A stretch of DNA of 64,000 nucleotides from Catajapyx aquilonaris. Taxonomy: Eukaryota. Position numbers and translations under genes: made by a program. The DNA lies in the NCBI GenBank assembly GCA_000934665.2, contig KZ538062.1, forward strand, positions 1 through 64,000, read 5' to 3'. Shown here piece after piece: positions 3,565 through 52,156 of the stretch (position 1 is the first letter of the stretch; each line of letters begins with the position of its first letter). The notes below the pieces were generated by a model that did not search any database, was not told where the DNA came from, and was given only the letters and a program-made list of their open reading frames with translations.

Positions 3565-4799
3565 CTACTTTATGTTCGATTTATTTTCTTCCGGAGATGA
3601 TCCAATGTAGACGGACATTTTATCGAACCTGGAAAAGAGTACGAAAAGGAATAGATGCATGTGAACAACGTTTAGATTTAATATTTAAAATGATTAAATA
3701 GGGGGGGGGGGGGGAAATCTCTCATTGTGTGTTTGTATATCGCAAATACAAAATCAGAGATCCAATCGTATTAATATTTGAGTTCATGCAATAAGGCGTA
3801 TTATTGACTTACCCAATGAACATTGATGCAATGCTCATCGTGGTGAGAATTAAAGAATATATACCGATTGTTACTACTACCATGATGTACGTGCTGGACC
3901 ACGCTGCAAAATAAAATAAAATAAAAGACAAATTTATTGTGGCAGTAGCTACTGGTATGCACATGCACTAACCCTATAAAAATATTTAGACTTTAGAAGC
4001 ATCTCATATCTTAAAAGCAGACGCATCAGCTAATTTATGGGCATTAATAAAAACGTTTTTTCTCTTTTTTTTGGCACTCTTGTCACTAACATTTATTTGC
4101 GATAGATACATAATTTATTGTGTTTTACTTTTTGAGAAAAGGCTCCCAATAATTTACTGGCATTAAATGTGCCATATTCAGAATGAGGTAATATACATAG
4201 TTGTGGGAAGGATTTATTCAACATTATTATGACACCAAATTCTATACTCCACATGCTTTTTAAAATGCGGGGAAGTATCTTATACGTTGTTGACTGCTAT
4301 CAATTATTGTTCAGTCTTATCCACTTGCGTCATTGGGTCGATTTTATTTGGTATTAAGGAAAAACCTGATCTTATATGCATTCTCGTCCTACCACTTTTT
4401 ATTCTGATAATTCTCTGCACAAAATTGTGTAGATTCTGTACGAACGCTATGAATACAAAGCAAGTTTTGCAAACTTGTTTTGTTGTACAGTATGCCATAA
4501 CAACAACTGGAGTTTCAAAGCTTCCTTGTGACTAGGTGCCCATATGATATGTAACAAACATTCATTACATAATATAAGTGTTAATGTTCAATAGCTTTAA
4601 TACAATCAATGCCCATTTTGTTATGTTAGTTTGTTACCTCCATGCACTTACCATCAAGAAGCATTTCTTTCTCCGAGGAAGGGACCCTAGGAAGCTTCTC
4701 TTGGATGGCCTCCTTGAATCTAAAGGCGACCTCATTGTCCAAGTCCGTGACTTTACTTAACAGATAAGCAGCGAAGGCAACCTGAAGAGCCACTAAAAC
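3565..4799 (-). CDS. Array gene Z (5' exon unresolved): 2-TM membrane protein, paralog of gene A
   Basis: Exons 4799-4652 (148 nt, VLVALQVAFAAYLLSKVTDLD...EKEMLLD), 3903-3813 (91 nt, WSSTYIMVVVTIGIYSLILTTMSIASMFIG), 3628-3565 (FDKMSVYIGSSPEENKSNIK*). All AG/GT bounded. The 148- and 91-nt exon sizes and phases match gene A. Confidence 0.7.
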
Positions 4800-7208
4800 C
4801 TGTTAAAAATCAGATCATTGAGGGTATAGCTTTCTAAGGAATGGTGGTGATGTTTTAGGGTTGAGCTACATGCCAAATATTAGCAGGAAAGTTCTGCGAA
4901 CAGTGAAAATTTATCATTTTGATTCAGTGCACAATATGCATGTGAATATGAAAAAAATGTATAACTGTGCTCTTGTAGGGGCCTTGGCATGAAATGAACA
5001 GTTTTTGGCTAACTGTAACTATAACCTTGTACAACTTCATCCCAGTGTGAATGACGATAATTATATTGTATAACTAATGTGTATTTTAGGCCTCATTTGA
5101 TTAGGCTAATATAGAATCATGCGAAAAAAGTGTGAGAGTGCATGTCTGCCTTAGGCCATGTGCGTGTGGATCTAATTATTGCAGTCAAGGTTACATTCAA
5201 TTGTACTTTTGTGAATGAAACTTATGTCAGTTGAGTCTCAGACATTTTCGTGGCACATTATTTGCAATCTTGCGACTAAAAAATTAGACGCCATCTTCTA
5301 CTATATTTCCACAACAATTACATTATTTTTAGAATAGTATGTGTCCAATTTTTGTAAATATTTTTGTAGGTAGATTTTGTGTGTTCCACTGACTTGTACT
5401 TATAATGAAAAGTGTCACCTCTTTCTGAAATCTCAATTTAGGTAAATATAAGTAATAATTTGGCCTACATCACAATGCTGCTGGTGCAATGCCTTGGAAA
5501 TTCCGTTGGCAAATAAAATATATATATTTTAAAAAAAAGAGTCGGTGTGATGAAAAGCGTCATAAATGCACTGTACATGTGAAGATAGTCCTCGAAGCGT
5601 TGCAAACTGCAGAGAGCATTGCTCAATATGTTTCTTATTATACTCATGAATATTTTAGGGGTTTTTCCCCATTTCCGGATGGCATTGGGCGTTGATCCTT
5701 CTAGGAAAACGGCGAAGGACGATTGAGAATGTCAACCTGAATGGCGCCCTACAAGGTGAACTCGCAACCTTGCAAGGTTAATATTGCTGTGTACTAATTT
5801 GGACACTGTTTCCGGATTTTTAGTATCATGTTGTACTTGTTAAATGTCTATAATATTTCCTCCCTCTTACAACCCTGGTCATTTGCGTCTTGCACATTCA
5901 GAATGAGTGGCTTTACAGTTTCAAATGATTGGAAAGATGCAAATGACACTTACCATTACTTTGGGATCGTAAACCTTCATTTCAGTGGAGCGGAATCACC
6001 TGCCGCACTACCATATATCACCTATCCACTCACCACAATGCTCATGAAAATGTTTCTCAACTGAACATATTTATTCTGGCTTTCTCCTGCGCAGTTCTTC
6101 TGGAGGTTCTCAGGCAATTTGATACAGGTTAAACGAATCGGCGAGAGCTTTCGAGATAACAACAGGTTTCAAAATTACTGTGCAGTTTAAGTCATGCTAT
6201 TTTTGCATGCAAGGAACACATTGTTTGTTGCTCTAACCTAGTAAATAGACATGTGTGAGGTTTTGCATTATTATGGACAATGTGTATAGGTTGCTCAGAG
6301 AAAACCGTTAGGAACTGATCCACTTATGACAAGGTGTAAAAAAAATCACCATGGAAACTAATTGTCACACACGTCACGTAGAGCTGCTTATTTTCACACA
6401 TCTATTTTTTGTCACCTTTTATGAGCCAACCTAATTAGACTGTACAATGCTGTGTCATGGAGGAAGCAAGAGTGTCATGTTACGGGAATATCCAAAGTGT
6501 TGGAAAAATCTTACCGAAGCCTTGATCCAAGTAGCCTTGGTGGCATGGAATCCCATACTCGTTGCACAACCACTGGGGACCAGGGGGAAAAAAATAAACC
6601 TTCCAACCCAAGAAGAGTTCCAGGAAATCACTGGCTGTCCAAAAATCTGCGTAGCGTTAATAAGGGGTACACGGTCTGGGGACTTTGAACTTTCCAAACC
6701 TGCTGGTTATCCTGTAGAACGCGACTGGGGCCCCTTTCAGTGTTGCATTTTCCAAGAAGGACGACCGGTTTCCAGTGTTGCCTGTAAATGTGTGTTAAGG
6801 TCAGAATATATAATTACTGGGCATCGTCCCCCTCCGGCAATATTATAAACAACTAAGTATATGGATGTTGCGTGCATGTACATTGCCCACGCATTTCATC
6901 ACACGCTAGGTATTGTATACTGTACGATATGTGGACAATAGCATGTTATTGCACAATTGTTGCGAATATTGATCTGGAGGTTGATTGTAAAATTATTCTG
7001 TAGCCTGCTGTATAATACAATCCATTTGCGCAACTAGTGAGAATTTAGAGGTGACAATTGGGCGTGCAAACTGGTTGGAAGGGGTTGGGGGTTGGCTGGA
7101 GGTGCACATCAGGAAGAGTTGAAATGAAAAACTGCAACGCCATCTACGGTACAATATGTAGTGAGAAGTCAGGTAAGAAGGAGACGAAGTGCTCGAAGAA
7201 TTAACTAG

Positions 7209-7210
<2 letters not shown>

Positions 7211-7249
<39 letters not shown>
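7211..7249. repeat. (AG)n microsatellite
   Basis: Direct AG run. Confidence 0.97.
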
Positions 7250-7252
<3 letters not shown>

Positions 7253-7887
7253 ATGACTGGTTCACTCCAAGATCAGTTTAAACTATTAAAGAAAAGAAAG
7301 AATCATGACGACATTCACTTGCCATGATTTTTCAGCACTTTTAAAACTGATTGCTGGAGTCAACGATCCGTATAACTTCTTTCCCTATAGTCTACACCTT
7401 CTGAAGGAAGGAGCTAGTTTTAAAAGCTTGCTATGAATTATTAAATTATTGCAAGCTCTTCTAAAGTTAGCATCTAAATTTTTTTAAAAAGTGGCTGTGT
7501 CAACAGACTATTAAAGTGGGTGCGCATAATGAGTATGCTTAATCTGATATTTCCATCAATTTAAGCTGATACACTCTCGATAGTGACACAATTGGAGGAG
7601 GAATAAGCAGTAGCAGTAATTATTTCCCAATTAATTTGTCAAACAATAATGAACAGCACTTTCTAAAGGACTCTCATTCCGGAAAAGGTATTCCGACTTT
7701 CATATTCAACCTATTCTTATCGTTGAATATCTATTTATAAATCCCTACATGTAAGTGACATATGAGTTCATTATCCCAATACCGATAAATGAGTCACATT
7801 AATATTTTGAGATCTTAAAAATGTAAGTAAATTTTATTGTCCATACATGCTCCATTAGTCAATTAATGTCTTCTTACGAAGCCTTGA

Positions 7888-8714
7888 TTAACATGAGGGT
7901 CGGCAGGACTTGTCCTTGAGGAGGTATTCTTCAAGAGCAGGGCCTACCTTTGGTATTCTGAAACAAAACAGGGATAATAAATTGCATAATCTTCATCAAA
8001 CTAATGTGTACTTACCCTCGGGCGATTGTAACTCCATAAGCTCCAGTAAAAAGGAGGCTGTAGATGGCCAACACTCCTAAAGAGGCCATGTATGTACTGT
8101 ACGCCCCTATAAATATAAAATAACCGGTTAAAAGTGCTCATCAATATCTGGATCTAAGTAGCTTAAACTGGAACTTATAAGATGCTAATGAACTTTTCTA
8201 AAATTACTAAACACCAATCAACTTTTAACATTCTGTATTGAAATGAAAGCCTTAAAACGTATCTAGCTGAAGGCCTTCTTACAAGTACATTGTAAGCAAT
8301 AATATGCAGGAGACTTGTCTTATGTAACCCCCACGGTTGTCGAGATGTCCTTCGACAGTAACAAAGGAACTGAAGGTCACTAATGAAATGAGCTTCCATG
8401 CCCGATTTTCTCCATTGATTATCTATACAAAACTGAGCTTACCATTCATGATAACTTCCTCCTCATGGGGTCGAATCCCAGGCTGCTTAGCCCTTATGGA
8501 CAGCCTCATCTTATGGGATGCGCTGAATTCCCAGTCGGACACCAGTGTCCAGATGAAATACAGGCAGGCCACCTCACCAACCAGCAGAGCCTGTCACATC
8601 CATCTCACATTATGTAATCATCCCATGATGGACACCACAATGCGACAAACTCACCCCAAAAATGGCGATTCGGATGCTGTGCTTCATCTCGGCCATTCCT
8701 ATCTTGGTGACCAT
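7888..8714 (-). CDS. Array gene A: ~122 aa 2-TM membrane protein (derived, truncated member)
   Basis: Exons 8714-8655, 8590-8443, 8106-8016, 7957-7888; GT-AG introns, phases 0,1,2. Protein MVTKIGMAEMKHSIRIAIFG|ALLVGEVACLYFIW...|AYSTYMASLGVLAIYSLLFTGAYGVTIAR|GIPKVGPALEEYLLKDKSCRPSC*. Confidence 0.72.
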
Positions 8715-11027: not shown

Positions 11028-12510
11028 TCAGGCGACAATGGTTGTGATGTAAACGCGTCTGTCGTAGTGGAACATGTTTCGCATGTGGTTGTAGACTATG
11101 GCCGTGGCCAGAGCCCATAGAGCGTAGACCACCACGTAGACTAGGAATAAGTACTGGTTTCCAACCCCCTTGACAGCCCTGAATATGACTCCTAAGCAGC
11201 CCAGTTGGACTATCACCACGGAGAACACGATCCATGGCCAGAGTAACGCTCGACGTTCCTGGAAAATACAGATTTCATGAATATTTTGGTGGGGAGAGGA
11301 AAGTTTTTTTCTCGCTTTTTTGGAGAGGGAGGGAGGGAGGAAAGGGCATGAGAGGAATGCAATATCCGATTCGAATCTAAAACAGATGCGCTTACAGTGC
11401 ATGAGGAGAGTAGATCATTGCTATTTAATAAGCAGGGCTTTTAAAGCAGCAGCCTGCTTTAAATTTTTTGGTGAATTTTCTTAAAAATGGTGCAAATTGT
11501 ACAGGAAAGAGAATCAAACCTTATGTAATCCGTAGAAAAGTAGGAAGCTGACCACAAAGTACATCAGGTCGACAAAAATTCCAACGATGTAAATTGTACG
11601 TAGGACTGCAAAAAAAACACACACACACAATAATATTACACCAGTCGATATAAAAGTTAGTGTTAAAACCGCATTTTCCAGTATATTACTGGCATTCCGA
11701 TTCTCCACTTCCTCTCCCAGATGCCACTTGTTGTTCCGCACATCCTGCAGGATGATCTTCTGCCGCTGGTCAGAAGTCGCCAGCTGAGCAGAAGTGGCCG
11801 TCAAATCGGCCACAACTACCACCTGCCAACAACAATACGCTAACAATAGTACATGCAGAAGTTTCAGCTAGCAATTTTTTAATCCGTCATCATGCTTTTT
11901 ATAGCAATTATTTTGGAATATTATTATTAGCATGGAATATTATAGCTGCTAATATGAATTTGGATTTGAAATTGCAATGCTTTAAAAAAAATGATGCATC
12001 GACTTTTGCTTCCTGAGTTTCTGGGGGTAGACATATTGTTGCCTCCCTGGGTCATTGGTTGTAATCCCCTCCCACCACACAATATTATTTTAGCATCTCT
12101 TTAGGTTTTTCCACCTTTGGTGGCGCCCAACTGTCCCGCTCGATAAAAAAAATGGCCCCTTACACGAAAAACGAATGTGTCGAGTTTGCGACCTCATTCT
12201 TTTATTATGCTCGTCAAACTTTCACTAATGGACATCAAGAAACTACTCGGTCATCAAAAAAGAACATGATTGTTACCTACAATTGAAGTTAAAAATTAAC
12301 TCAAAAAACCAGGTCAATACTCATGGCTTTTTGATCCAGGTCAAAAACCAGATCGCGCTTTGTAAGCCTCAGGCCCACTGCAGCAGATAGGAATAATTTA
12401 CAAACGCAACACGTCACACACACACACACACACCCTACAGTCTATCGTACCAGGGAATAGACTCCAGCGATGGTGGCCCATCTCTTGGTGTCGTAGTCAT
12501 GATAGCACAT
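11028..12510 (-). CDS. Array gene B: ~169 aa four-TM LAPTM4/DUF4728-like protein
   Basis: Exons 12510-12451 (MCYHDYDTKRWATIAGVYSL), 11822-11690, 11605-11520 (..VSFLLFYGLHK), 11258-11028 (ERRALLWPWIVFS...IVYNH); phases 0,1,0. Confidence 0.82.
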
Positions 12511-12796: not shown

Positions 12797-13653
12797 TCAT
12801 TGAAGGTTGATGACCACCACCTTCTTCCTGATGACCCTCCAGTAGCCGAAGATGCAGGCGGTCAGTAGGAAACTTCCGAGGTCGAAGATTCCAGTGTTGA
12901 TGGCTAGGTCTCTAGCCCTGTAGCTGGCCACGTTGTCATTGTCGCATTTTATCTCGCAGGCTTGCCGGAATGTTTCCAAGTCGCCGTACATGCGCTTGCA
13001 CATGCTCTCGCACTCCAGCAGTAGGAACATGATCCCGTGGAAAGCAGCAGATAACGTGATGTTCAGGCATTCCAAGATCACAAAGTACGGCAGGTAGTCT
13101 CCCTCATCTCTCTGCAAAAAGTGATACCACGAAATAACTTTTAGGTTGGTACTACTGGACATATCAACCACAAAGTGTCCGCGCTTAGGATATGGTATGT
13201 GACGATTACTCACGGTGATGATCTTGTACATGATGAGAAGACAGTAAGTGGTTACTGCTATGGCATTCAAAGACAGACACCAGTTGACCAGGTACATTTC
13301 TGTGTCAAAATTATTGATCAGGGATCCCCATTTTTTTAAATGTAAAATGGAACAACTGTTTTGATAGAAGCTCACCGTGAGTCAGGAACTTGTCGTACCG
13401 GATTCCTTCAGTGTATTGTATTGTATTGTTTTTGATCTCGAGATGGTCGACGAGACTCTTTTTGATGTTCGGGATGTCCATTAGTTGAAGGTAAGCCAAG
13501 GCGCACTGACCCCAAAGCGCCGCCTTTGACCAAATCAAGCAGGAGTTAAGTATACATTAATCATAAATTAATCATAATTGGGAGCAATTAAGAGTCGGTA
13601 CTCACGATGATGCACATGAACAACAGGAAGATGAGCCATCGCACAGCACCCAT
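12797..13653 (-). CDS. Array gene C: ~192 aa four-TM protein with Cys-rich TM3-TM4 loop
   Basis: Exons 13653-13606, 13505-13376 (weak acceptor), 13299-13214, 13111-12797 (RDEGDYLPYFVIL...CESMC...CEIKC...); phases 0,1,0. Confidence 0.75.
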
Positions 13654-14950: not shown

Positions 14951-16213
14951 TCATTGGTCATCCGGTTGGGCAGATATCTTCCGAGATGACTTCTTGACAA
15001 TAAACCATTGTAGGATCAGAGGGATCATTGCCAGGATAGGACCTACGCTGCACACGACCAAGTTGATTATTAGGTGTATGAGAGTGTCGTCCATCTCTTT
15101 GCATTTCGTCAAGCAAGCGTTCTTGTCACCAATTGCTTTCTCCTCGGCCTGCGTGTTGTTCAGGTATTTGTTGGCCACGCGCGAGCACAACATCCCATCA
15201 TCGTCGCATATGTTTCTGAACCGGATGTAGAGGACTAGGTGGCACAGGCTGTTGACGAATCCAGTCCAGAGGCAAAGGGTGATGAAGAACGGCAAGTAGT
15301 GGCCATGGCGACCCTGAAAACCGTCTTACTGTACCATATACAAGCACAAAACGAACCATCTAAATTCACGCCCAGACTTGGATCATTGTGTCCCGTCTTC
15401 TAAACGGGACAGCGATTACAAATTCCGGCTTGGAGACGGAACATTAGCGACGCTTATTTAGACAAGAAAAATCAACACATCACTAAGTGTGTATTGCAAT
15501 ACGAGCTTCCAATGGAAATCTCAACAATATAACCTCCAAGTCGGGAAGTCAGGAGACGATACAAAGAGTGACCAAGTCAAGGTATGACTTACTGTGAATA
15601 GAGGCTCTCATATACTCACATGTACGGCCATACAAATGACGAACACGGCGAATGATGATACTGCTAAGGTATTCATCAAGATGGTTGCGTATATGATGGT
15701 GAACTCTGCGACATGAAATAATTCGCACTTGCGGTTAGTACAACATACTGCGTGCATAGAGTGATATAGTAATTACTGTATGGTAGGCCTACATAATTTC
15801 TCAGTGGTTAGCATTTTTTGTATTAAGCAGCTTATTTTAAAGCTGTTTTGTACAGAGGTTACATCAGTTCGAATAGGAGCATTCGTTGGTATAGGAATAG
15901 GACCAATTAAAGTCACTAACCATGTGACTGTGCATGACAGTAGGCTACTTTTCAATATTCTGACAATGGGTAAAATACCTTACCTAATCCTCGGACATTT
16001 CCTAAGTATTGCCGATCTTGATACATTTGAACTTCTGTCTTGTCATGATCGGAGTATTCTTGTCTCTTAAACTCGATTAATGCGAACTGCGTCAAAACGG
16101 CTACCTGATGACAAGTGTGTTAATGCCTGATATATGCAAACAAAAAAAAGTGTGTGCGGCATACTCACAGCTATGTATAAAGCTATTATGACCGTTAAGA
16201 CTCTCCAAAGCAT
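14951..16213 (-). CDS. Array gene D: ~204 aa four-TM protein with Cys-rich TM3-TM4 loop
   Basis: Exons 16213-16169 (MLWRVLTVIIALYIA), 16104-15984, 15705-15620, 15313-14951 (GRHGHYLPFFITLCLW...CDDDGMLC...CLTKC); phases 0,1,0. Confidence 0.8.
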
Positions 16214-16613: not shown

Positions 16614-18145
16614 TTAAGGAATAATGTTGTTTCGGGCCAACTTCCTGAGATAGTGCAGGTCCCTGAGCTCCTGATAGTGCCTGAGCACCACCAGAATAAA
16701 GGCAATTTGAACCACAAAGTCCAATCCGATGACCACAGTGGCCACCACCTCCAGACCAGCCGTCAGGCCCAGGATGTAGAAAAGAGCAGCCACAGTGATA
16801 CAGCTGGACTTGACCGTTGTCCAGACCAGCAGCATGTGACGCCATCCCTGAAAAATACACAATTTTGAGAAAACACTATGCATTATGGTGGTGAATTATA
16901 TATTCACGTTAATGGCGGCGCTTATTAGGAGACAGGAGGCTAGAAGGTCCAAGATTCCCATGGCCAGGGCTACTCTGCTGACTGCTTTTGGTCCAGCCTG
17001 GTCCTGAGGTACATCGCAGTCACGCCAGCTGACCACCTTGGCCAGGATCAAAGAGCAGTACACCACGATCCCGATGGAATGAAGCTGAAGTGGAGGACAT
17101 TATTACTTCAACTGTATTCAAATATGATTAGGAAGTACTGGACCAGTGAGCATGTGGCTGTTTACACAAATGCACAATGGGTTGAGGAAAGTGATTGCGG
17201 TTTGTGTTACGCCTCAGAAAATGTAACCATATCGATTGTAACTTATGGAACACAGGTATAGTGACGTCACTTGTATTTAACTTATTGTTTACATTGTTGA
17301 CGTCTCATGTTGCCACGTGCAAACAACCTGACGTAAAAGTAGGTGAATCATTCTTTTAAAAAGGCTTATGCGACCTACGCAGCACTCCTTTTGAACGGGC
17401 CATGTCCATGACCTCTGGCCAGCGTGTGTTGCCAGGTACTTGTAATGCTGCAGTACGGTAGTTCGAACGTTAGTTTGCGCTTTACTACGCCAACTGTTGG
17501 TCACAGCCAAATCAGCTTGGGTTGGCATTGGCAAGCCCTAATACATACTTTAGGCCTCTGCAAAAATCATGCTCGTACCCCGTACTGTATTATTCAGTTG
17601 AAGGTTTCATTTGCACACTCCAAAAACCAGAATTTTTGAACAGACTTCCCCCATCGTGCACTGTATATTTTTTCGGACAAGTAAAGCTTTTGAAGCCGTT
17701 TATAATAAATTAAAGGCCCTCTCTCACAAGCAGGTTAAAACATTCAGCATGTCCCTAACTCCTCTCTGTGTGAACCGAGAAACGTTCCTATCCATTAATG
17801 CCAATGAAAACTTTAAAAGCCAGGTGGTGTGGAACTAGTATGCAAATTTATTTATAGGTACCGGACGTCTATTTCCGTGTCAGTACATCTAAGCAGCTGC
17901 AATAAGTGTATGACTACGTGACTATTTTCTCACTATATTCAATTTGGCTTTCATCCATTTCGCACTTTGAACCAATATTGAAGTTGTTTGAACCCCCCCC
18001 CCCCCCCATTCTGTGTAAGTCGCAATTGTTCATTGTTGCTTGTAACCCCTGCTTTGAGGTCATAATAGTAATAATAATGACTTACCAGACACAAGAATGC
18101 GATGACAATGGCTCCCCTTCGAGTGGCACAACCACATATGTTCAT
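16614..18145 (-). CDS. Array gene E: ~156 aa four-TM LAPTM4/DUF4728-like protein (3 coding exons)
   Basis: Exons 18145-18086 (MNICGCATRRGAIVIAFLCL), 17084-16908 (..ILDLLASCLLISAAIN), 16847-16614 (GWRHMLLVW...LVVLRHYQEL). Confidence 0.85.
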
Positions 18146-21387: not shown

Positions 21388-24300
21388 TCAAGGCGGAGAC
21401 CCCTTGAAGGGGAAAGAGCAGTCTGAGTATGAGGGCGGAGGCGTCTCTGTCACCAGCCCGTGGCTTCGACGCCTTCCAGCCACAATGTGCAGAGTCCTCA
21501 TGGCCCTGGAGCACTCGGAGGGCTCCACCAGGCAGTCCTCGTAGGAAGGTGGGAGGTCAGACAAGGGTCGTCTGACCACAGACAAGGTGCTGCTGCCGGT
21601 TATGCTGCTGAGTCTCCCTCGACGAGAGGAGCGCCGAATCATGGAGACGCATCTGGCAGAGACGCAGACCATCAGGTAGAGCTGGATCACAAAGATGGCC
21701 CCTAGGGTCATCCGGAACCGGGTCTTGGCGCTGCTCTTCTCCGCGGGGCTGTCCTCTGACCAGGTGTTCTCAGGGTCTTCCTGCCACCCTTTGCACATCA
21801 GGAAACCCACGATGGACTCGTAGGCTATGTACAGTATCAGCCATGGAAGAAGAAGTTGGACTTGCTCCTTGGAACAGAGATGGGACAATATTAGACACCC
21901 TATATAAGATAGTCTGAATTATTACGAAATCACTGCATTGAGAAAAAATGTGCAAACTCTGAGAGAGTATATTTCAAAAGTAATGAATGAGGATAATGCA
22001 ATGCTTGATAGTAAACCAAACTTATTTTTCAAAGAATTCCTGGCATTACAGTATGCCTTGTATGTGACACAATAGCTTATATTGCGACCTTTTGGCTTAT
22101 TGCCCAAGTGTTCTTTTCTATTTGATGACGATTATGGATATGGAACAACTTTGAACATTACATCCAGGGAACAAAACTCGTAATGAGTTATTAAAATTTC
22201 CGTTTTAATTCTGCCTGTGCAATCACCATAAATGTAATGAACTGCCACTCGTACACTGTATATCAAAATTCATATCGCACTAGGTTTTCATTACCTGCCG
22301 TTGACTTTTGCCATTTTCTGTTTTTCATTTCTCTCTGGCTTGGATATTGACTTATTCTAGCTGGCTAGACACCCCGACGCTGTTCTCTTTATGCAGGAGA
22401 GTTAGAAAACTTTTTCAATTTTCTTTATGGCCGCCGCGAGAACAATACAGTCCGTCGGGGTGTAACGAAAGCAACCTTGCCAAGGTAATGGAGACACACT
22501 GCCCCTGTAACTTTATTACACAAAAGTGTAGGAGGATTCCAACTTGTCTAAAACGTTGCGTCGTAAAAATGAGAAATAAAAATAATAAGCTGGCCTCAGC
22601 TCAAATTTTCGTGAAAGGCACGAAAGATAGCAGAGCCAATCAGCAAAACAGGCATTGAAGATATCTTTCTCGGATGGACATCATCAAAATCTGTCCTTTT
22701 AATAAACTTAGAATATATTGCTCCCGTAGATCATTTACATTCATTTATTCATACTTGTTTGTACCTTACCTATTATTACATTGGTAAGGCATTGTTATGC
22801 ATAAAATTTGCTTTTACCGCTGCTGATTGGACAACTGAACACTTTCAAATGTCACACAGTACATCTTACTTATATACAAATGTCATAGGTTATACCGTGT
22901 TGAGTCCAGATATGAGCAGGGGTGCCATGAACATCTCGGCGACACTCAGGACCAGTAACATCGTTAACAGCACTGGATCAACTGAAAAAAATTAAAAATC
23001 TCATTATATTCGTGTTACACACAATCAGCATTGCTTTTATACTTTTAATAGTGCTATTCTGAAAACTTCGTCATACATTTTAATATTATTAACTGCTAAT
23101 ACTGTAGTTTAGTGAAAAGTATGACGAAAAACCAATTGATACAGTATAGATGAAAGTTGTATTATGCATGCTTCCTAAGTGTAAATGATATCTTCAAGGC
23201 TGACTTGAAAGGAAAATTCTCGAAACTTACACCAAGCAGAGAGTTACGACGTGATCCAATGTGTTTCGTAGATCATTAAAGTTTCTCGCGCTTGTTACGC
23301 TCAATAAACTTCAAGAGTTAAGCACACTTGTTTGTTAAAAAAGATGGCTCGTTCGCAAAGGCTGTAAATTTATTCGAGCGAATTTTTAGTTGTCTTCCTT
23401 TCCCGTTTACCAGTATAGGTTACAATTCATCCTCAGAAGATAGCCTTCAGGCCTTGTCATTCGGGGAATTGCGGAATTCTGAACATCAGAGAACTTTGCC
23501 GATGTTGAATTTTTAGCCGGACTGGCTCGTGTTACTTGCAAATGGTCGACAACAACAGGATTTTGGAAAAATAGGCACACATCTTTGATTCTCCCAGAGT
23601 GTTGAAAAATGTGCTGAATCAGAAAATGTACATAGGCAACACTTGATTGCATATTTTCATTAGCCATGTTGTTAACTGCATATTATTTACTGCCTGACGT
23701 ATTTCTTTGCCAAAGACTAAACCCGTCGGTAAAAAACTTAGCTAAAGAGCGTTCTTGAAGTACAGGATTGGAATTGTATGTCTATAAATTCATAATTACG
23801 TAATATTCCAGACGCTATCGGCCTAGCTCTTCAACAGAATATAATTGGCAATTAAATAAGAATATTCATTTGCAATGCAGCCTGCAATAAGGAAGTGCAG
23901 CGTACTCCATTTATGGCAAAGTGAAAAATCAGCTATGTTAAAATCCTGGTGCTAAATTCTACGAACAGTATCGCAGTATTGACAGCCGTCACCCTACAAC
24001 ACCAATGTGGTTGGTGTTAGTTATCGGATTCCCATTGATGCATTGAACTCTACTGAACAATACATCCCCTTTTTGTGCCACAATAGAGCAGAGAGGATAT
24101 ATTGAAGTCACATTGGCAACAGCGGCTTTTTAAAATGTCAATAACTAATCAGTGATGTCAGTGCTCAAGTTTCATTATCGGGCTTCTAAAGTATGTTGTT
24201 TTTGAGATCGGCACTTTTTTGTAACAATCCAGCTGCTTCTAGTTTTCCAATATTGCACGGTATCAACGCATCAGAGTGTTGAAGATAATGATTTAACAAC

Positions 24301-24888
24301 AGTGTATACTTTGAGTTTAATAAACTCAGAAATATGAACGGTGTTATCTGCACTCATTACGTAATATATGAAGATACCATAAAATATGGCATCAAAAGAG
24401 TACCATCAGCGTAAGAAGTGCATGGGTAATAACTAATGTTATATTATGCGGAACTGTTTAGTCAGCGGGATGTCTGGACGTTGTCGCAATGCCAATTCGG
24501 AAAAGGCCAGCATGCGAAGGGCAAACTCTATTCAGGTTCATTGTTCAGCTAGATTTTCGCAAGCATACATATGCGAATTCACCGAGCGAGAAAATAAATA
24601 GTCGATTCATGTAAAGGTCACGGTCGTAAACCGCACAGTTGCACACGAGGAGACTCGCTTTCAAGTTTGAGCATACCTGTCACATTGGACTTGTAGATCA
24701 TAATTGTCGATTCCTCCATACTGGCCATTATCAGCAAGATGAACACCACGCAGAAGACCGCCTTCGTCTGCAAACAAGTGTCTATAGTTAACAACAATCA
24801 AACACAACCGAATTTACAAACTTGCCAGGGACAAATATCCCGTGACGTAGCACACCACGCAGTTTCCGTTGCACTCCTGGTTGCTCAT
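21388..24888 (-). CDS. Array gene F: ~239 aa four-TM protein with two PPSY motifs in a long tail
   Basis: Exons 24888-24826 (GC donor), 24767-24677, 22981-22896 (..APLLISGLNT), 21867-21388 (EQVQLLLPWL...LPPSYEDC...PPPSYSDC); phases 0,1,0. Confidence 0.82.
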
Positions 24889-35263: not shown

Positions 35264-38200
35264 TCACTTGGAAGGAGGATCCTGCGGGGGATTTACCCAT
35301 ATGGATTGGAAATTGGCGTTTTTGGAGGCCGATTGAGCCTGCTTCAGAATACTGAAGTGCGAGTAGACCACGAAGAAAGAGTAGAGCTTGATCACCACGT
35401 CGCCGGTGTAGGTCGCGACGTCGTGAATGTCCGTCGTGCTCATCAGGATGGCCGTCGTGATCACGGTGCCGATGGTCACAATGTCGCATATCAGCCAAGG
35501 GAGAAGAAAGTGTCGCTTTTCCTGCATAGACGACAGTGTGTCGAAATAATGTATACACAGCAGGTCATGCAATGTCCCCCAGGCGATTCTTTTTCTTTTG
35601 TGAAACACCCTACTGTCAATATTGTTGGAAGAGAAACGCGTTGGAAGTCAACTTTTAAAGGTGCCAGGGGATATTTTTTCAAACGGTACATAGCACCAAA
35701 AGGTGCTGCATATAATTAAATTCGGCTGAGTTAAGCGCCATATGCACGGCAGCAGTGCAAAAATTAATTCCCAAAATTTTAAAACAACTTTCAACTTTCA
35801 GGTCCTGATGTATACGTAAAAAGTTAAGCCAAAAACAGGCTTAACTGTGACAATAAGCAGTTTTCTTCACGCAACTGAGTTAAAATATTCAAAACCACTC
35901 AATATGAGTGGGTTGGGCATGGAAAGTGCACGGGGGGGCTCAAATTGAGCTGGTTCAATTTAGGCTCCCACTATGAGTGATTTTCACTCAAATTATTTAT
36001 GAGCAAGACCGGGATGAATAACAGTCGACTGGGGCTGCCCTCACTTTAATACTGTCGCATAAATATTTGTGTAGTTTTTTTTCAGCTAAAATTTATAAAG
36101 CATGACAACGCTACTTACATTTTACAATGCAGCATGGCTTAATTTTTCAGTAGGCTCTGAGATGAGGTCGATACGCATTTGCGTCATCATGTTCAACGCA
36201 CTAAGTACAGTAATGGAAAGTTGGGATTCGTACTATCATTTTAAACCTATAATGAACACGACGCAGTTTCACCATTGCAAAAACTGCACGGTCAAGGCTA
36301 CCTAGTAACAATGGCAGTCAAATGAGACCATCGATCATGAAAGGACTGTCAAAAAGCTCTTTTTTTCAGACTGATTCATCACAGATATTACATTTTTTTC
36401 TTCAGAATTTCGCGATTGATCACAGCCATAGTAGAGTAAAAATTGCAGTTAACTGTACGAATCGTTCAGTGAACCCCAGGAGGTGATCGAAAATCCAACT
36501 TTGGATTCCAGGAAGTTCACAGGGAAGTAATAACTGATTCACTGCTGTGCCAGGCACCACTCAGCATTGGTTTACGACGGTTCAAAGGAGAGCTCTACCC
36601 GCCAAGGAGACACATCTTTATGCCCAGTGATGCCCAAACTTTGGCCAGACCAACTGCCAAAAAAATCCAAGAGGATTCACTCCAAACTCCAGACAGACTG
36701 CTCTTGAAGTTTGGAAATAATCATGAGAAAGTAATCTGTCTGTAACTGGCACTGAAGACGACTTAAAACTTGTCAATTACTGAAGATTTGTTCAGTGACC
36801 ACGGATTTGTGGCAAGCGACAAATAAAAAAAGTGCGCAAGAAGAGGCTCGCTTTCAAAATGAATGCTCCTTTAAACCGATTTCCGATTTCATTTCTCACG
36901 GCCTCGTCAGGTGCTAACCAATCAGGAAATTCAAGTGGTCCGAACGAATGAGGAGTTCAGACCGAAAGGAAGGGCCAATTGGAAGCCGAGCAAATTGACT
37001 TGAATGATTGGTATTGGTTTGGTACAGCCTCCCAGTGCCTTCAATTACACCCTCGATTCTTGGCGTATCAATTGAAGTGTATAGTATTTCTCTATTGGAA
37101 CCGAGCCTTTGTCAATTATTCATGCATGTGATGCTTTAAACCGAAGAGGAACCGTTTGGAAATTCAGATCAAATTGTTTACAACGCTGGATTCTATTATT
37201 TTTCCGTTTTTTTTCGAATTTCTGCTTTTCAGTTTATTGATTTGGCAGACTTGAGAAAGTACCGATGAATGATCGGGTTTCTCAAGCGTGTAAGGCCGTT
37301 ACGCATGAGCGGAAATTGCGGCTTCAATGTCGATACATTTGTCAACCTATAGGACCTGAAGCAGTGGATGTTGGGTCCTGATCTTACAATTTGCAACAAT
37401 GACTTTAACTAACAAGAATGAATGCTCCCGGCAATAATGAATGGTATATGTATTTTAAAAAAATTCTCCATGCAGTATTGAAATGAATAGTACTGTACAC
37501 ACACCCATCGCGCCAGATTGTTAATTACAGGACGTGTGTGAATGGAGTTCGTTTAAATCAATTCGGTTGAAATTGCTCTTCACTTTCGAGGAAAAGCGTG
37601 TGTGTGAATCGCGTTCTCTCGAACTAATTCAGTCCGTCCAAATTGCTTTCGTTTTTTTTTTGGAACCCTCATTTGAGAGCTATATTCCAGGAATCCACAC
37701 TGCAGCATCACCCTCTGAATTGTGCTGGAAAACCAGTCTTCCTTTGTGTCTCCGTATTTCCCCGGAAAAAGAGACCGCCATGGGGAACCCTGAATGAGTC
37801 ACCGTTACGTAACAATGTCCGGAACACATGTGTTTTCCGACTTACCATCATAGCTCCGTAGATAAGGAGACAAGAGGCGAGAATGTTGGCCACATACACC
37901 GCAGATGCGACATAGGTGCTTGCTGCAAATTAGGAAATTGTCACAATGCACTAATTGCGTATTTCCAAACTAATTTCTGGAACGTGGACATTCACATGCT
38001 TCGTACACACCTATCTCAAATGTTTTTTTTAAAAAATGAAACGGCATCACGTCCATTTTGAAACAGATTGATTCATGTGAAATCGCACTTTCATTCATAC
38101 TGAGAGCACATGTTCATCTCAGACTCTCCCACAATGAAAGCTACACTTACTTGGATATTGCTCCGAGTTGTTGGCGTTGGGTACTCCAGGATAATATTTT

Positions 38201-38404
38201 TGCGGGTTATGGAAAAGCAGACAGTTGAGGATTCCGCTGATTACCTGCAAAGGCGAAAATCCTTGAACTCTTGCAAGGATGCTGCAGCTTCTGGACCACA
38301 CTGGATTCAAAGGCAAAACTCACGGCCTGCATGATTCCTATAAGGATGCATCCGTTGCAAGTTGAGATGCAAAAGCAGCAGCTAGTTGTGCGTAAGCTGA
38401 CCAT
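35264..38404 (-). CDS. Array gene J: ~169 aa four-TM LAPTM4/DUF4728-like protein
   Basis: Exons 38404-38324 (MVSLRTTSCCFCISTCNGCILIGIMQA), 38244-38151, 37922-37846 (..LASCLLIYGAMM), 35521-35264 (EKRHFLLPWL...FFVVYSHF). Confidence 0.9.
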
Positions 38405-39821: not shown

Positions 39822-41090
39822 TCAGACAGCGTGTAGGTCACCTCCTTGGGCAGCTTGTTGGGCTTCCCTGAGGATGAAGAAGTGGGACCAGACCACCAGG
39901 AAGAAGTATATGCCATAAAAGACGTCCATGACGGTGGAGAAGATGCCTTTATAGTGGGGTCTGTTGGTGTTGGTGACTGTTGTTATCACCAGGATGGGGA
40001 TGACGAAGAGGACGGTGAAGAACAACCAGGGGAGCAGGCACCACTTCAGGTTCTGATAAGAGTACAGAGCTTTTTGTTTAGAATTAAACAACGAGTGGGT
40101 ACCATGCGTGTATGTAAAAATATCATGTGACAGAGTGACAGAATGTCCGAAACTTTGTTTGGCATCGTAACGTAATGATTATTTGAAAACATCCAGATTG
40201 GACGTGAAAAATATTGTGAGGACAGCACGGCATTGCGACTAATTACAGTTCTACAATAGGACGCTAAAAATAGTAATTTTTCAGTAGCGATGGGGGTAAT
40301 GAACCCCTAATTACCTGCATGGCGCCGTAGACGAGCAGGCACGAGGCAAGAACCATTGTCAGGTGAATGGTCAATGCAATGTACGTCAGGCCTGCGAATA
40401 TTTAAAAAAAAGATCTCCAATACTAACACTCACTGCAACAGGTCAGGCTATAGTACACGGTGGAGTAGAGCCCACACACGAAATGTGGATAATATGAGCG
40501 AAAAATGATATGCACCAAAATTAATAAAATATTGAATTTATGTGTTGCATGTAGTAGTTAACCTCATAATAATGCAGCTGCTAGCATGATAAGAGACCAG
40601 GACAATAACCATGGAAGAGTTATCCGATTGAGTAAATATTTAGTAATAATTACACTGTTATGACACAACTTTAAATTTTATGTCAACGGAGTCGTTGGCC
40701 TTTTTAGGCCGAAATTAATGTCTAGTGCACTGACCTTTTTTTTCTCATATTCTCCACAAGTTCTGGCAAATTTGTGTGAGTAATTATCAGGTTAATGAAA
40801 TTACTAATTTACACAATAATCTTTATTGCTGAATTTTTGCACATTGTACTGGACAAAAATACTTACTCGGATAATCCCTGGAGCTAGCTTCGGTGTCCTC
40901 CGGCTTGAAGAACAGCAGGAAGAGCATGGCAAAGCTTCGAAACTGCAACCCAAAACATGCAACCAACATTAAACCAAGGCCACATACATCGTAATAGAAA
41001 CCAACTCACTGCTCTAAAGATCCCAATAATGATGCACCCTGTGCGTGTCGAGAAACAACAGCAGCAACTCCTGGTGTAAATGAGCGACAT
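39822..41090 (-). CDS. Array gene K: ~154 aa four-TM LAPTM4/DUF4728-like protein
   Basis: Exons 41090-41010 (MSLIYTRSCCCCFSTRTGCIIIGIFRA), 40942-40867, 40391-40315 (..LASCLLVYGAMQ), 40052-39822 (NLKWCLLPWL...FFLVVWSHF). Confidence 0.9.
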
Positions 41091-41929: not shown

Positions 41930-43748
41930 TTAAATAGAGTGAAGAGATGGCTTAGGGCTGATGTCCTCAGTCTCTTTGAGTATGTGAAAGTGCGAGTAAA
42001 CCACCACGAAGAAGTAAATGTTGAAGAGGACGTCCATCGACGACGCCACCACGTCCCTCGTGCTAAATCTGACCACACAGCTCTCCACAGTGACCATTAT
42101 CACCACAAAGAAGGTCTGGAAGACTGTGGCTGCCAACCACGGTATCAGGAAGTACCTCTTGCCCTGCAGAATTACAGGATACAAATTGATGTAAAAATGG
42201 TCACTTGGTACGTGGGTCATGACCTCTCACCGTAATAGTGCCGTAGTAGAGAAAGAATATGAAGATGAACAGCAAGATGTTGATGGCCATCACCACACTG
42301 TACAGGCCTGCAAATGGCAGAGGTTAGCAAGGGACTACTTACATGTTAGAGAGGGGCTTTATTGGATTGCGTCATGGAAGAGTCGTGGGAAAAGGTTAGA
42401 TACGATAGGGGTATGCAACCAACAGAGCATTAACCTCTTGAGAGGCGGAGGGAGTTTCTTTTTGTATACTGAAATCCCGGTGGTACCCGCGGAAAAACCA
42501 ATAATCATTTTTAATGTATCAAATTTTTGCAACATTTCAGCTTCATACTGACATTACGGTTATTTACGTATTGTTTACACTTTTTTTTAAATAGAAATCA
42601 CTTCAGGATAAGACAAGAAGCAGGCTTGCCGGCTTTAGGTCCAATTAAAAGACTCTTTTTAGAAGGCTGTCTGCCAAAAATAATGCCCTCTTAGTGAAAG
42701 GGGGGAGCTATAGGAACAGAAAATTGGCTGAGACACGACAGGAGCAATGATAGGCTCAGACCGTGACATACCTATATTCTCTACCAGGTTATTTTCGATC
42801 GGGGATCACTATTATGAGGCTCTATTACTGGTTAAATGTGCGGGTAAGGAAAGGGTTAACTCAGGTTAAATCTATGAGTACTGAGTTACCGCCTGCACCG
42901 GTACCTTTTTTAAAAAACGTCAGTGTACTTGTGTGCGGTTTATCCTAAATGTTAATTGGTGTTGTAGCCAATGTTTTTAATTATACATATACAATACGAC
43001 GTATACCACAAAATGTGAATTTCCACAGGGAAATTACTGCATGAATGTGCCCTACTCATTTGCACAAATTCGGATAATTGCTCACATAAATATTCCACAA
43101 TTTGTTACAAACCCATAAATCATGCATAATTCGACGTAATCATTCCGAAATTGCCCAAAATTCCCATGTGTCCTTCATAATTCATCGTGAATCAATGAAT
43201 AATCATAATAAATTCTGTGTACACCTAATCAAGATATTGCTTCCGCCCCTGCCGTGAGAAAGGACAAACCCAACAGTGCCCAAATGCAATGTTAATGTGC
43301 CAATAGTGTGTACAGTATAATATACACAACAAGCAACTACCTCACCTGTATTTTCCTCCAACTTGGACAGACCCTTGTCCGGCTGGTACAATACGATGGC
43401 AACCAGAAGGCTGCCGATCACCTGTGAAAAAAAGGCACCGCACCTAACAACACCTTCGTAAGCATTTACACAAGTGAAAATGATTTGATTATGAGTGGAA
43501 GGGTTGCATTGTGAATAATTTGGCTTCTTAGGGCATGTTACATGTTTTGTATGAAAGCCAATGAGATTTTGAACACCTGTATGATTTTTTTTTTCTTCAT
43601 AATTTTCTTTCGCACTGGTTTTAAGTTGTCGTGTCACTTTGCTGTTAATTGCATAAACCGTGCAACTCACAAGTTCAAATGCACCAATGATGATGCATCC
43701 AGCCCTGGTGGAGCAACAGCAGCACTTGGTGGTGAGGATGTGTGTCAT
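41930..43748 (-). CDS. Array gene L: ~154 aa four-TM LAPTM4/DUF4728-like protein
   Basis: Exons 43748-43671 (MTHILTTKCCCCSTRAGCIIIGAFEL), 43421-43346, 42307-42231 (..FFLYYGTIT), 42163-41930 (GKRYFLIPWL...FFVVVYSHF). Confidence 0.9.
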
Positions 43749-45757: not shown

Positions 45758-47225
45758 TTAAAACTTAGTTGGATGAGGATTAGGGAGAGTCTTTTCTCCA
45801 GTTTGATTAGGCTTCTTCTGATATGGCACGTCGATCTGAATCCCATACAGATCAATGTTCGGGAAGATCTGATTGTTGTTCTTGTTGAGGAGGGGATTGG
45901 CAGCTGCGTTGGGGTTGTTTCGGTTGATTACGTTCTTCCTGTTGAAGGCAGTGATTCTGTTGTGAGCGGCCAGCAGGAGTGCTCGCTGGTGACGTCTGCG
46001 GGTCTCACGGGTCACCAGAGCAGTGAAGTGCGAGAAGACGATCAGGAAGAAGTACAACTCCAGGAAGAGGTCGATGGTGGCGATGTTGACCCCTGCGATG
46101 CGGTACACGTGCATCCTCTTCAGGATGTTGCTCATGATCAAGGCGCTCATGTTAGCGAAGATGGCGTAGAGCCAAGGCAGCATGAAGTATCGGTTCTCCT
46201 GTAATATGAGAAACTCATTATTTACTCATTAAACTGAGCTATTGTTAATACGTATGCTCCCAGTACTTTTGCACTCTGGATGTTGCAACTTGATAAGGAG
46301 AAGTCGACAACACAGTACATCAAAAATATGCGCATTGAATTCACAGGAACAGATAACAATAGGCATTTCTCTTCTTCGGAGGAACAACAACAAGACAGTT
46401 GCATAACGGGCATTCCAGTCTGCGTGTTTTGGCTATTCAAGATGGCGAATGTGCCACGCATACTTTCTCAATCTGCCGGCATCTGCTCCTATCACTAACC
46501 CTCAAAATGGCTTCCTATACATGTTGGTGGCTTCACAGAACTACTTGATTTACCCTGATATTCCAGACAGATTATTAAATTTGCTAAAATTGCTGCACTG
46601 TGCATTCACCCCGAAGTGAGTCATGACATTATGACCGCGCCTGCATAAAAACAGGTCAAAGTGCGCGTCCATTTACGAGCGTTGCTGGTTGTCACAATTA
46701 CCGAACGTATCGAGTGACAATACTATCTCGAAACATGAGCTGTCTGCACACGTACCAAGCAAAAGACAAGATTTAATTACTGAAATGACCTTTAAAATTC
46801 GCAACGTCCACGTCTAATTCACTAATCAAGGAGGTAGTCCATAGGGAATAGTCAGGAAGGTCAACTGTCACAATACTTACCTTAATGGCACCACAGATCA
46901 GCATCAGACAAGCCAAGATGTAAGCCGAGTGGGCAGTAACCATCACCAGAGTCAAATCTGAATCAGAACCAAAAATAAGTCCAATTGACCCACCCTATCA
47001 TAACCCGAACTATTTTGTAGTAATTACCATGACTTTCGTAATGAAAGACCTGGTTTGGAGAGGCACAGAAGAGGACCTTGATGTACAGGGTACACAGAGC
47101 CTAAGGAGAAACACTCGTCACTTCTTGCACTGTCGTCGATTGAAGATACTCACAATTTCGATGAGCCCGACGAGGACGCAACCGATGCGGGTTGACATGC
47201 CGAAGTTCAAACCAGGAGAAGGCAT
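45758..47225 (-). CDS. Array gene M: ~220 aa four-TM protein with basic/Asn-rich C-terminal extension
   Basis: Exons 47225-47154 (MPSPGLNFGMSTRIGCVLVGLIEI), 47100-47028, 46957-46881 (..LACLMLICGAIK), 46198-45758 (ENRYFMLPWL...FFLIVFSHF...). Confidence 0.88.
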
Positions 47226-48292: not shown

Positions 48293-49258
48293 TCAGACAT
48301 GATGAGTTGACTCTAACGGGTGATGTGATGAAACTTGCATGGCTTTGAGTATGTAGTAATGAGAATAGACAACCACAAATGAATAGACGAAGAGATGAAG
48401 GAAGGCCACATTAAGACACATAGAGAGCCAACGTGACTCCCTAATGCTCATAATGAATGCCACGCCTGAAAAGATGATGCTCAGGATGGTGAAGAGCAGC
48501 CATGGCAACAACCAGGGTTCTTTGCTCTGAAACGCAAGTTGAAAATTCATTGTTTATCATAGAAATGTGCGAAATTTTACATTAATGTTTCACTTACTTT
48601 GATAGCTCCATATATGAGAAGGAAGCAGGTTGCAGCGTAGACGGCATACCAGCTAATGGTAAAGTACTTCACACCTGGAGGCAGAAATCATAATAAGTTT
48701 TTTTTTCCAATAGTAAAATAGGCTGTATGGTTACACCACTATATCGCTATCTTGCCTAACGAGGTGTCCCCATATTCTTCTTGATGGTGGAGCCTGTAAC
48801 TCAGGAGAGCTGTTGAGACAATGTTGCTGACCTGCAAGAAAAATAGGCTATTGATTCGGAACAGACTGTCTCGGAAGTTCAAACAGCACAAAATTATGAC
48901 CAAAAAAGTGGGTCAAAATCGTTGCTTTTTATGGGCTATCCAAAAGACAAGCAGCTGAAGATGGAGCTGAAGTGTATGTAGGCTACAAGGTTTATGGTCA
49001 AACTTGGCTGTGCACACACCGCAGTATAGTCTATACTCTATAGGTTCATGAATAATGGACATTGCGCATCAGTTTTTTTTGCGATTTCTTACTAAAAATT
49101 AATTGCAGATTTACATGTAGATATTTCATGACAGTATTTCAGGCGGGAGGAGTACTTACGATTCCCAAGACGCCCACAACAATGCATCCTATTCTAGTCG
49201 AGACACAAAAGCAGCAGGAAGTTGTGATGATCCTCCCCATCCTTGTCTTTTTCACCAT
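48293..49258 (-). CDS. Array gene N: ~161 aa four-TM LAPTM4/DUF4728-like protein
   Basis: Exons 49258-49160 (..TTSCCFCVSTRIGCIVVGVLGI), 48831-48756 (GC donor), 48674-48598 (..ATCFLLIYGAIK), 48526-48293 (SKEPWLLPWL...FVVVYSHY). Confidence 0.87.
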
Positions 49259-51024: not shown

Positions 51025-52156
51025 TTACACTTTGGGGTAGGCTGGTGGGCCACCTCCTGGCGATTGGATGGAACCGGGGCTTCCCTTCAACTCTATGTAA
51101 TAGGAGTAGACCACAATCACAAAGTAGATGCTGAGTGCTAACTCGCAAAGGTACAGCCCGAATGCTGGCCAGAAGAGAACGACGCCCATTGCAATGATAT
51201 TGATGAAGGAAAACACGATTCCGATGCACTGGACAACCATCCATGGCACCATGAATCCAGGTCGACCCTGACAAAAAAAAATTAGTATTTCAAGAGAGGA
51301 ACAATAATGTATATAACAATATTAATTCAATGAATTATTCACTCCAGAAACAATAATTATTGTTTCTAGAGTGAACAATCCATAACTTCTTCATTGAATT
51401 GGGGAATTGGGCAGTGTATCACCCTTTATATTAAACCATGCCTGACTAAATTGCGAACGAAATATGTCCCTATTTATTCCACGTCTCAATTATACTCTTT
51501 CATGTTCTAAGAGCCCAAGTCACATGTTTTGTCAGTGGCACTTGGGGAATATGCAAAATTCAAGAGTGTTCTTACCTGGTTGATCCCTGCAATCAGAAAA
51601 GAGCAGACTACAATGTATCCGACGTAGAGCAGAAGTCCAATAATGAACATTGCCAGGATCACTACGGGGCAGGAATGACAAAAGTGTTAGTTTATATTAC
51701 AACTGGCAGTGGGCATAATTACCTTACCGTTTAATGTGGTTTCAACTGCAGCTTCCCCAGCGGGAGTAGAAAAGTTGGGGTCTGATGAAGCATGATGGTA
51801 AGCGTCATCTATTATGGAAAATTCTGCCAGTATGATGACAAGGGTTATGGTGGCAAGGATGGACATCACCTGTAAGTGATAGTATAATTAAATATAATAT
51901 ACACTGTAAAATATAATAATAAATGCAGTAGGTCTATATGGCAACTTAGTCTTCCTAAGGGGTTAACGCGTTAACCAAAAGTTAACTTGACACGTCTAAT
52001 TTCGATTGTTATTAATTGCCGACAATTATTGGATCCAGGTCAGGTCATTATTACACGATCGACCCTTGAATTACTACTGACCAGGTAAAATATGGCAATG
52101 GCTTTGCTGCCACTCTTCAAGTCGCAGCAGCCGCAGCAACCGTTGACGGTCAACAT
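51025..52156 (-). CDS. Array gene O: ~181 aa four-TM protein, most canonical LAPTM4/DUF4728-like member, ends PPAYPKV
   Basis: Exons 52156-52082 (MLTVNGCCGCCDLKSGSKAIAIFYL), 51869-51728, 51661-51576 (..CSFLIAGINQ), 51267-51025 (GRPGFMVPWMVV...YFVIVVYSYYIEL...GGGPPAYPKV*); phases 0,1,0. Confidence 0.92.

Follow-up and report, generated by a model that had tools for sequence, protein, structure and literature searches.

What kind of locus is a run of 16 genes for small membrane proteins that all read in the same direction? Such a run takes up 49 kb of contig KZ538062.1 of Catajapyx aquilonaris (GenBank assembly GCA_000934665.2), inside the 64,000-nucleotide (nt) stretch that we analyzed, hereafter the window, which is eukaryotic DNA (GC ~0.40, short GT-AG introns, 24 N's). 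A first-pass annotation, made from the letters of the DNA, had described the run as a lineage-specific, fast-diversifying family of LAPTM4/DUF4728-like proteins, comparable to receptor-like arrays such as MS4A. Our answer is that the region is most likely an old tandem cluster of pasiflora/fire-exit small tetraspan genes (DUF4728, DUF7027), a family placed next to LAPTM4 (Mtp), and that its genes are new members of a known, little-studied family. DUF4728 (PF15860) corresponds to the tetraspan family published as pasiflora/fire-exit, for which a link to LAPTM4 has been described.

Gene models were built by listing AG...GT exons under phase constraints and by direct reading of the sequence. The open reading frame (ORF) pieces of the minus strand group into repeated exon classes (BLASTP clusters), and 12 terminal exons have in common a pyrimidine-rich, phase-0 acceptor just 5' of an x-K/R-x-x-L-L-P-W-L stretch. 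The 16 genes rebuilt in this way, lettered A to O with X16 between E and F (our letters may be shifted relative to those of the first-pass annotation), lie head to tail on the minus strand from position 3565, where the stop codon of A starts, to 52156, the ATG of O. Thirteen of them have four exons with phases 0-1-0, and their exon 3 measures 86 nt in seven genes (C, D, E, F, G, H and O), 83 nt in I, and 77 nt in the five genes J to N. In X16, exons 2 and 3 are fused, giving three exons in total, and in A and B a short tail follows exons of 42/148/91 nt, with phases 0-1-2. In the 12 core genes (all except A, B, D, and E), exon 2 encodes the predicted first outer loop, exon 3 encodes transmembrane (TM) segment TM2, and exon 4 encodes TM3, TM4, and the tail. 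The spliced frame is open in all 16 models, without an internal stop or frameshift in any of them, the introns comprise 44 GT-AG and three GC-AG pairs, and the proteins range from 114 to 239 amino acids (aa). These models are established, and they agree with what had first been proposed about the co-oriented set and its two end points, the four-exon plan with its exon 3 size classes, the open frames, and the small multi-pass membrane character of the products.

The array exceeds what chance would produce, since a random minus-strand stretch is open with a probability of 0.038 over 77 codons and 0.008 over 143 codons, and the 14 last exons, of 66-159 codons each, are all open. Likewise, a profile of 12 models run against all ORFs (>=12 aa, both strands) gave 44 matches at an independent E value (i-E) < 1, all of them minus-strand and located from 11529 to 52156; the plus strand and the sequence beyond the array gave zero. 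Pfam scans returned no family for nine plus-strand ORFs within the array and no meaningful family for 81 minus-strand ORFs at 3.4-10.8 kb, the region of A and B, in keeping with the earlier statement that no other recognizable gene lies between the copies.

Sequence comparison places most of these genes in one family. By itself, exon 4 of J reaches 27.5 bits with Pfam DUF4728, above the cut-off of 26.7, and weak DUF4728 matches were seen for C, K, and M in the Pfam scan of ORFs. An exon 4 profile (A1, from a 12-sequence alignment) searched against 1.84 billion representative proteins retrieved 28 outside proteins at E <= 1e-3. DUF4728 is matched by 26 of them at E <= 0.01, with 21 above its cut-off; DUF7027 is found in most of the 28 as well, and weak Mtp matches (16-22 bits) in a few. 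A profile of 21 outside proteins in turn matched 10 of the 16 spliced models over nearly their full length, with E values of 5.5e-34 for O, the best in the array, 4.7e-27 for N, 2.1e-25 for J, 2.4e-23 for L, 5e-18 for C, 2.2e-17 for M, 4.3e-15 for H, 1.3e-12 for X16, and 3.2e-11 for F, K also being among the ten. G and I are counted as members because they are linked through H, by BLASTP exon clusters, by identity (39% for G-H, 28% for I-H), and by a G-H-I clade with a Shimodaira-Hasegawa-like approximate likelihood ratio (SH-aLRT) of 95. By these comparisons, 12 genes (C, X16, F, G, H, I, and J to O) are demonstrable members of the DUF4728 family. The Mtp (PF03821) cut-off of 25.2 bits, by contrast, was reached by no window exon (11 ORFs) and by no outside relative. 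The earlier label of a LAPTM4/DUF4728-like array is supported for most of the copies through DUF4728, which the literature ties to Mtp/LAPTM4, but not as one family of 16. A homologous-protein search with J exon 4, separate from profile A1, found nothing, iterative profiles of exon 2 did not converge, and all Atlas leads were < 0.9.

The PW motif fits the published description of this family. According to Deligiannaki et al. 2015 (PMC4582180), the pasiflora family carries PW at the start of TM3 and either VxSQYQ (Pasiflora1 orthologs) or VxS (Pasiflora2) at the end of TM4, PW being the only motif common to the wider family, which ranges over arthropods, molluscs, echinoderms, and hemichordates and has nine members in Drosophila; Pasiflora1 and Pasiflora2 are described there as core septate-junction components. 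By that paper and a preprint (10.1101/2024.04.13.589362), two fly members belong to the septate junction and a third has been connected with cell competition, the others having no known function, and the preprint gives CG15098/ikebana both Mtp and DUF4728 and says that the family extends to LAPTM4A/B. The array proteins resemble the Drosophila set (Pasiflora1, Pasiflora2, Fire exit, CG15098/ikebana, and five others) in their size of ~150-240 aa, their four predicted TM helices, and the domain and profile matches given above. Of the 14 four-TM genes, 8 (C, F, J, K, L, M, N, and O) open TM3 with PW. All 12 sequences of the exon 4 alignment share the W, which is likewise invariant in the outside consensus (...LLLPW...IYFxLVVYSxY...), where the P is near-invariant, as in the array. 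At the end of TM4, a candidate counterpart of the VxS motif, V-x-S-H/Y-F/Y (in its fuller pattern V/I-x-Y/W/F-S-H/Y-F/Y), is present in J to O, 6 of the 14; I has AQYQ and H has IQY at this place, and the other genes are without it. A hydropathy scan found four segments in C, D, E, F, K, L, N, and O, three in G, I, J, and M, five in X16 and H, and two in A and B, and the alignment of the 12 core genes has the same four blocks throughout.

Apparent differences from the fly family are that the array gathers 12-16 copies in one 49-kb head-to-tail cluster, has PPxY tails in some copies, lacks the P of PW in four, carries a cysteine-rich second loop in D and E, and includes two-helix proteins in A and B. 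With LAPTM4A, LAPTM4B, and LAPTM5, the array has in common four predicted TM helices and, in F, G, H, and O, a PPxY-type tail that the predicted topology would make cytosolic; the weak Mtp matches of the outside relatives and an Atlas lead of 0.78 to LAPTM5 point the same way, but the Mtp cut-off is unreached and PPxY is absent from 12 of the 16 copies. A narrow literature search found no report of a tandem expansion of the pasiflora family. One of the outside proteins, P0003 (899 aa), contains five DUF4728 and four DUF7027 stretches and is probably a gene call that fuses neighboring tandem copies in another organism, and clusters of the DUF4728 family would therefore exist elsewhere. Genes with exons of 40-150 nt are readily missed or fused by gene callers, and P0003 looks like such a fusion.

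Transcript evidence came from X5, a run of a kind unstated in its records, which contained 15% of the words of 11000-18200 and whose contigs were compared with 3600-23599. On that interval, they gave nine joints, all of which refine to minus-strand GT..AG introns, and one loose end; none of the nine joints was seen in the DNA run X1. The X5 contigs are of transcript type and spliced. The joints fall in A (two), B (three), D (one), X16 (two), and F (one), and together with the loose end they support ten junctions in these five genes, whose splicing is thereby established. In A, the joints 4797->6513 and 3626->3811 refine to the introns 4800-6514 and 3629-3812 (GT..AG), and the exon 2/3 joint falls at a masked repeat, where no joint was reported and the contig depth arithmetic fits. 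All three introns of B (8591-8654, 8107-8442, and 7958-8015) appear as GT..AG joints in a single contig of depth 41.6, and both introns of X16 (17085-18085 and 16848-16907) lie in one contig (770 nt, depth 38.1), which confirms the fused exon. The exon 3/4 junction of D is exactly the joint 13111->13214, and that of F corresponds to the joint 21866->22895. The loose end, at 22984 in F, runs on into a sequence whose sole match in the window is 24680-24709 and sets the exon 2/3 junction at 22981|24677; the 3' untranslated region (UTR) of F is ~1.4 kb long (19998-21387), a contig of 3144 nt spanning 19998-21866. X5 cover is missing over gene E, most of C, and exons 1 and 2 of D, which has no bearing either way. 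For K, the outside protein P0002 (122 aa, from a Logan contig of 1057 nt) is 82% identical to residues 33-154 and reads without interruption across the exon 2/3/4 junctions, so these junctions are independently supported in a relative.

The RNA-defined exon of 91 nt replaced a 74-nt exon 3 that had been considered for B and a five-exon model for A, and a candidate exon 1 of F at ~23582 was dropped since the loose end puts exon 2 at 24677-24767. Three unspliced X5 contigs (depth 3.7-5.8) lie between B and C, at 9529-10923, and may represent a long 3' UTR of C, like that of F. The final models are collected in Table 1.

Table 1. The 16 array genes in the window, with exons in order of transcription; numbers in brackets are exon 3 lengths in nt.
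Gene	Position	Strand	Product	Exons
A	3565..6556	-	114 aa, 2 TM helices	6556-6515, 4799-4652, 3903-3813, 3628-3565 (42/148/91/64 nt, phases 0-1-2)
B	7887..8696	-	116 aa, 2 TM helices	8696-8655, 8590-8443, 8106-8016, 7957-7887 (42/148/91 layout as A)
C	11028..12034	-	167 aa, 4 TM helices, WPW motif	12034-11981, 11822-11690, 11605-11520 (86), 11258-11028
D	12797..13653	-	198 aa, 4 TM helices, CX3C...CX3C TM3-TM4 loop	13653-13606, 13523-13376, 13299-13214 (86), 13111-12797
E	14951..16213	-	204 aa, 4 TM helices, cysteine-rich TM3-TM4 loop	16213-16169, 16104-15984, 15705-15620 (86), 15313-14951
X16	16614..18145	-	156 aa	18145-18086, 17084-16908 (fused 2+3), 16847-16614
F	21388..24888	-	239 aa, LPW, two PPSY in tail	24888-24826 (GC donor), 24767-24677, 22981-22896 (86), 21867-21388
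G	26402..28805	-	228 aa, two PPSY in tail	28805-28737, 28679-28580, 26989-26904 (86), 26833-26402
H	29738..31003	-	219 aa, two PPSY in tail	31003-30938, 30856-30760, 30689-30604 (86), 30148-29738
I	31314..32333	-	150 aa, short tail	32333-32262, 32184-32088, 31997-31915 (83), 31514-31314
J	35264..38404	-	169 aa	38404-38324, 38244-38151, 37922-37846 (77), 35521-35264
K	39822..41090	-	154 aa	41090-41010, 40942-40867, 40391-40315 (77), 40052-39822
L	41930..43748	-	154 aa	43748-43671, 43421-43346, 42307-42231 (77), 42163-41930
M	45758..47225	-	220 aa, long Asn-rich tail	47225-47154, 47100-47028, 46957-46881 (77), 46198-45758
N	48293..49240	-	155 aa	49240-49160, 48831-48756 (GC donor, GCAAGA), 48674-48598 (77), 48526-48293
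O	51025..52156	-	181 aa, PPAY near C-terminus	52156-52082, 51869-51728, 51661-51576 (86), 51267-51025

Several observations weigh against the assignment of the array to the pasiflora/fire-exit family. Only one of the 11 single-exon ORFs scanned reaches the Pfam cut-off, the profile of outside proteins gives G only an E value of 1e-3 and I no match, and, since the outside proteins were retrieved with the exon 4 profile, agreement between them and exon 4 involves some circularity, from which the N-terminal halves are free. The P of PW is missing in X16, G, H, and I, which have the W alone, PPxY is a short motif from which ligase binding is predicted only, and the junctions seen in RNA, which the first-pass annotation had proposed as a check, are those of A, B, D, X16, and F, within the interval compared (3600-23599). 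In support of the assignment, the fold modeled for the outside relative P0017, which is 33% identical to O over 175 residues, with an alignment of 20 outside proteins, is a four-helix bundle with four long helices (predicted local distance difference test 85.1, predicted template modeling score 0.75). A Foldseek search of this model against the PDB found no solved structure at E <= 1e-3, the weak rows being Kei1, the Fc-epsilon-RI beta chain, and CD9. In VIA-align, the tetraspanins (CD9, CD53, and Tspan15) rank first, with Z of 11.2-12.3 over 153-155 residues of the TM bundle, values that, being below ~13 for helical bundles, may reflect shared arrangement only.

Further points concern D, E, A, and B, for which the outside profile gives E values of 2, 0.014, 0.016, and 0.55. 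Their scores against the family profile, set beside those of the top shuffled sequence, are 9.0 and 9.7 bits for gene E, 1.3 and 6.3 for D, 5.5 and 5.6 for A, and 0.1 and 3.3 for B, and hhalign against the family gives probabilities of 0.09-0.15. A, B, and D have no Pfam match, and an Atlas look-up with D exon 4 returned unrelated leads only, at <= 0.80. All this would be expected if two or three unrelated families stood side by side, a DUF4728 family (C and X16 to O), a cysteine-loop four-TM family (D and E), and a two-TM family (A and B). Nevertheless, D and E keep the four-exon 0-1-0 plan and the 86-nt exon 3 of five proven members, and directly after the exon 3/4 junction they have LPY or LPF in place of PW (LPYF at the start of exon 4 in D), an L-P-aromatic at the LPW site of the others, where the best (non-significant) hhalign alignment also falls. 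A, B, and D have a 148-nt exon 2 and a phase 0-1 start in common, and strand and spacing are alike for all. We therefore consider separate families unlikely, and by gene structure (phases, the 86-nt exon 3, and L-P-Y/F at the exon 3/4 junction) D and E are probable members of the pasiflora/fire-exit family, while A and B are two-helix proteins that share only the first half of the exon plan.

A and B also bring up the question of whether several copies (A, B, C, and N) are transcribed pseudogenes or decaying duplicates, in which case the functional set would be smaller than 16. The transcript of B ends 22 codons after exon 3, and TM3 and TM4 are absent downstream in any frame; both A and B lack this half of the protein. 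Exon 1 of C is doubtful, with no GT donor and only a weak GC donor, and GC donors are required by three introns. On the other hand, A and B agree exactly in exon size (42/148/91 nt) and have kept their frames open at a synonymous divergence (dS) of ~2, which argues for conservation of the short form, and spliced contigs cover both. The donor of N, GCAAGA after AG, fits the usual GC-donor consensus, and no model has an internal stop or frameshift, making decay on this scale a rather improbable explanation.

The age of the copies bears on the remaining alternative, that they form a rapidly diversifying, lineage-specific receptor-like repertoire, as in MS4A or chemoreceptor arrays, with loops and tails positively selected for varied ligands or partners. 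Pairwise identity among the copies is only 8-39%, conservation is lowest in exon 2, with its outer loop (10.9% identity versus 17-30% for the other parts), tails vary widely in length and motifs, an outer loop rich in cysteine has arisen in D and E, and every copy is still open. However, for the closest pairs dS is 1.45-2.6 or not computable, with a nonsynonymous divergence (dN) of 0.58-0.98; dS is saturated and dN/dS rates are therefore not readable, and age explains the low identity. K is 82% identical to its relative P0002, found in another data set, versus 36% to its nearest paralog, and together with the saturated dS this indicates that the duplications are old.

A quick tree with 28 outside rows splits the window copies into several groups, some next to outside proteins, with weak support. 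The window label needs six changes on it, of which the starred branches force at least two; G-H-I and K with P0002 are well supported, O groups with P0015/P0016 (SH-aLRT 86) and C with P0010/P0028 (85), and most forks are open. The tree and the outside neighbors thus appear to speak, weakly, against a single recent lineage-specific burst, and neither "lineage-specific" nor "fast-diversifying" is supported as a description. The analogy with MS4A reduces to a tandem gene cluster and a generic four-helix bundle, as P0017 matches the Fc-epsilon-RI beta chain, which we take to be MS4A2, at Foldseek E values of 0.5-2 and template modeling scores of 0.34-0.40 (0.37-0.40 at E 0.5), and Pfam CD20 is not among the matches listed for window ORFs or outside relatives. 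Neither tetraspanins nor MS4A proteins have sequence similarity to the array, which also lacks the large cysteine-rich EC2 domain with CCG. We hold a rapidly diversifying, lineage-specific receptor-like repertoire to be unlikely.

Under the pasiflora/fire-exit assignment, the array proteins would serve as scaffolds in the membrane, without enzymatic activity of their own, and would join other membrane proteins in cis, as pasiflora proteins and LAPTMs do. The J to O type, with short tails and a cysteine cluster N-terminal to TM1 (present in J, K, L, N, and O), would be most like junction and microdomain organizers, the cysteines presumably serving for S-acylation. LAPTM tails bind Nedd4 ligases through PY motifs, as the first-pass annotation also stated, and in the array PPxY is found in F, G, and H, with two PPSY each, and in O, with PPAY. 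For these four proteins, recruitment of Nedd4-type ubiquitin ligases with WW domains is predicted, through which they might direct cargo sorting in the endolysosomal path, as LAPTM4/5 do; the earlier picture of variable tails with PY motifs is borne out for tail lengths and motifs, but PY is limited to 4 of the 16 copies. The TM3-TM4 loop of D and E contains four additional cysteines (CX3C...CX3C in D, CX6C...CX3C in E); these two would most likely be strongly diverged members in which disulfides abound in the second outer loop, and A and B may be expressed two-helix derivatives or neighbors.

One could go further and see the cluster as a self-contained toolkit, a modular membrane recognition-and-removal system on one ancient scaffold in which A and B would be co-expressed two-helix half-proteins that pair with or block the tetraspans, D and E would offer an outward binding surface, and the PPxY copies (F, G, H, and O) would lead to ubiquitin-dependent turnover; such a system would be undescribed for the pasiflora/LAPTM superfamily if true, but we hold it to be highly improbable. 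The pasiflora/DUF4728 family has barely been studied, and a cluster with several old subfamilies and differing tails and loops provides a natural set in which the roles of those loops and tails can be explored. The suggested connection of pasiflora proteins with ubiquitin-ligase adaptors of the LAPTM type could be tested on it as well.

The array is bounded by a tektin gene on the plus strand at ~55.1-56.3 kb (ORFs within 55128-56318). Two plus-strand ORFs there match Pfam Tektin at 45.5 and 63.7 bits, and solved tektins match as well (best E 3.5e-6), which indicates a multi-exon tektin gene on the strand opposite to the array; a homologous-protein search with one tektin exon found no relatives. 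Between K and L there are 23 N's (41357-41379), and a single N lies at 39674, downstream of K; this intergenic assembly gap hits no exon. Beyond the tektin gene, translated pieces of opposite strands at 57263-57521 and 58156-58391 match each other (BLASTP clusters), forming an inverted duplication of ~200 nt with its parts ~700 nt apart, which may be the ends of a mobile element. Overlapping ORFs of both strands at 60561-60968 match each other in a low-complexity or internally repeated stretch, and a long trinucleotide repeat at ~1009-1138 reads as poly-Asn or poly-Ile in minus-strand frames.

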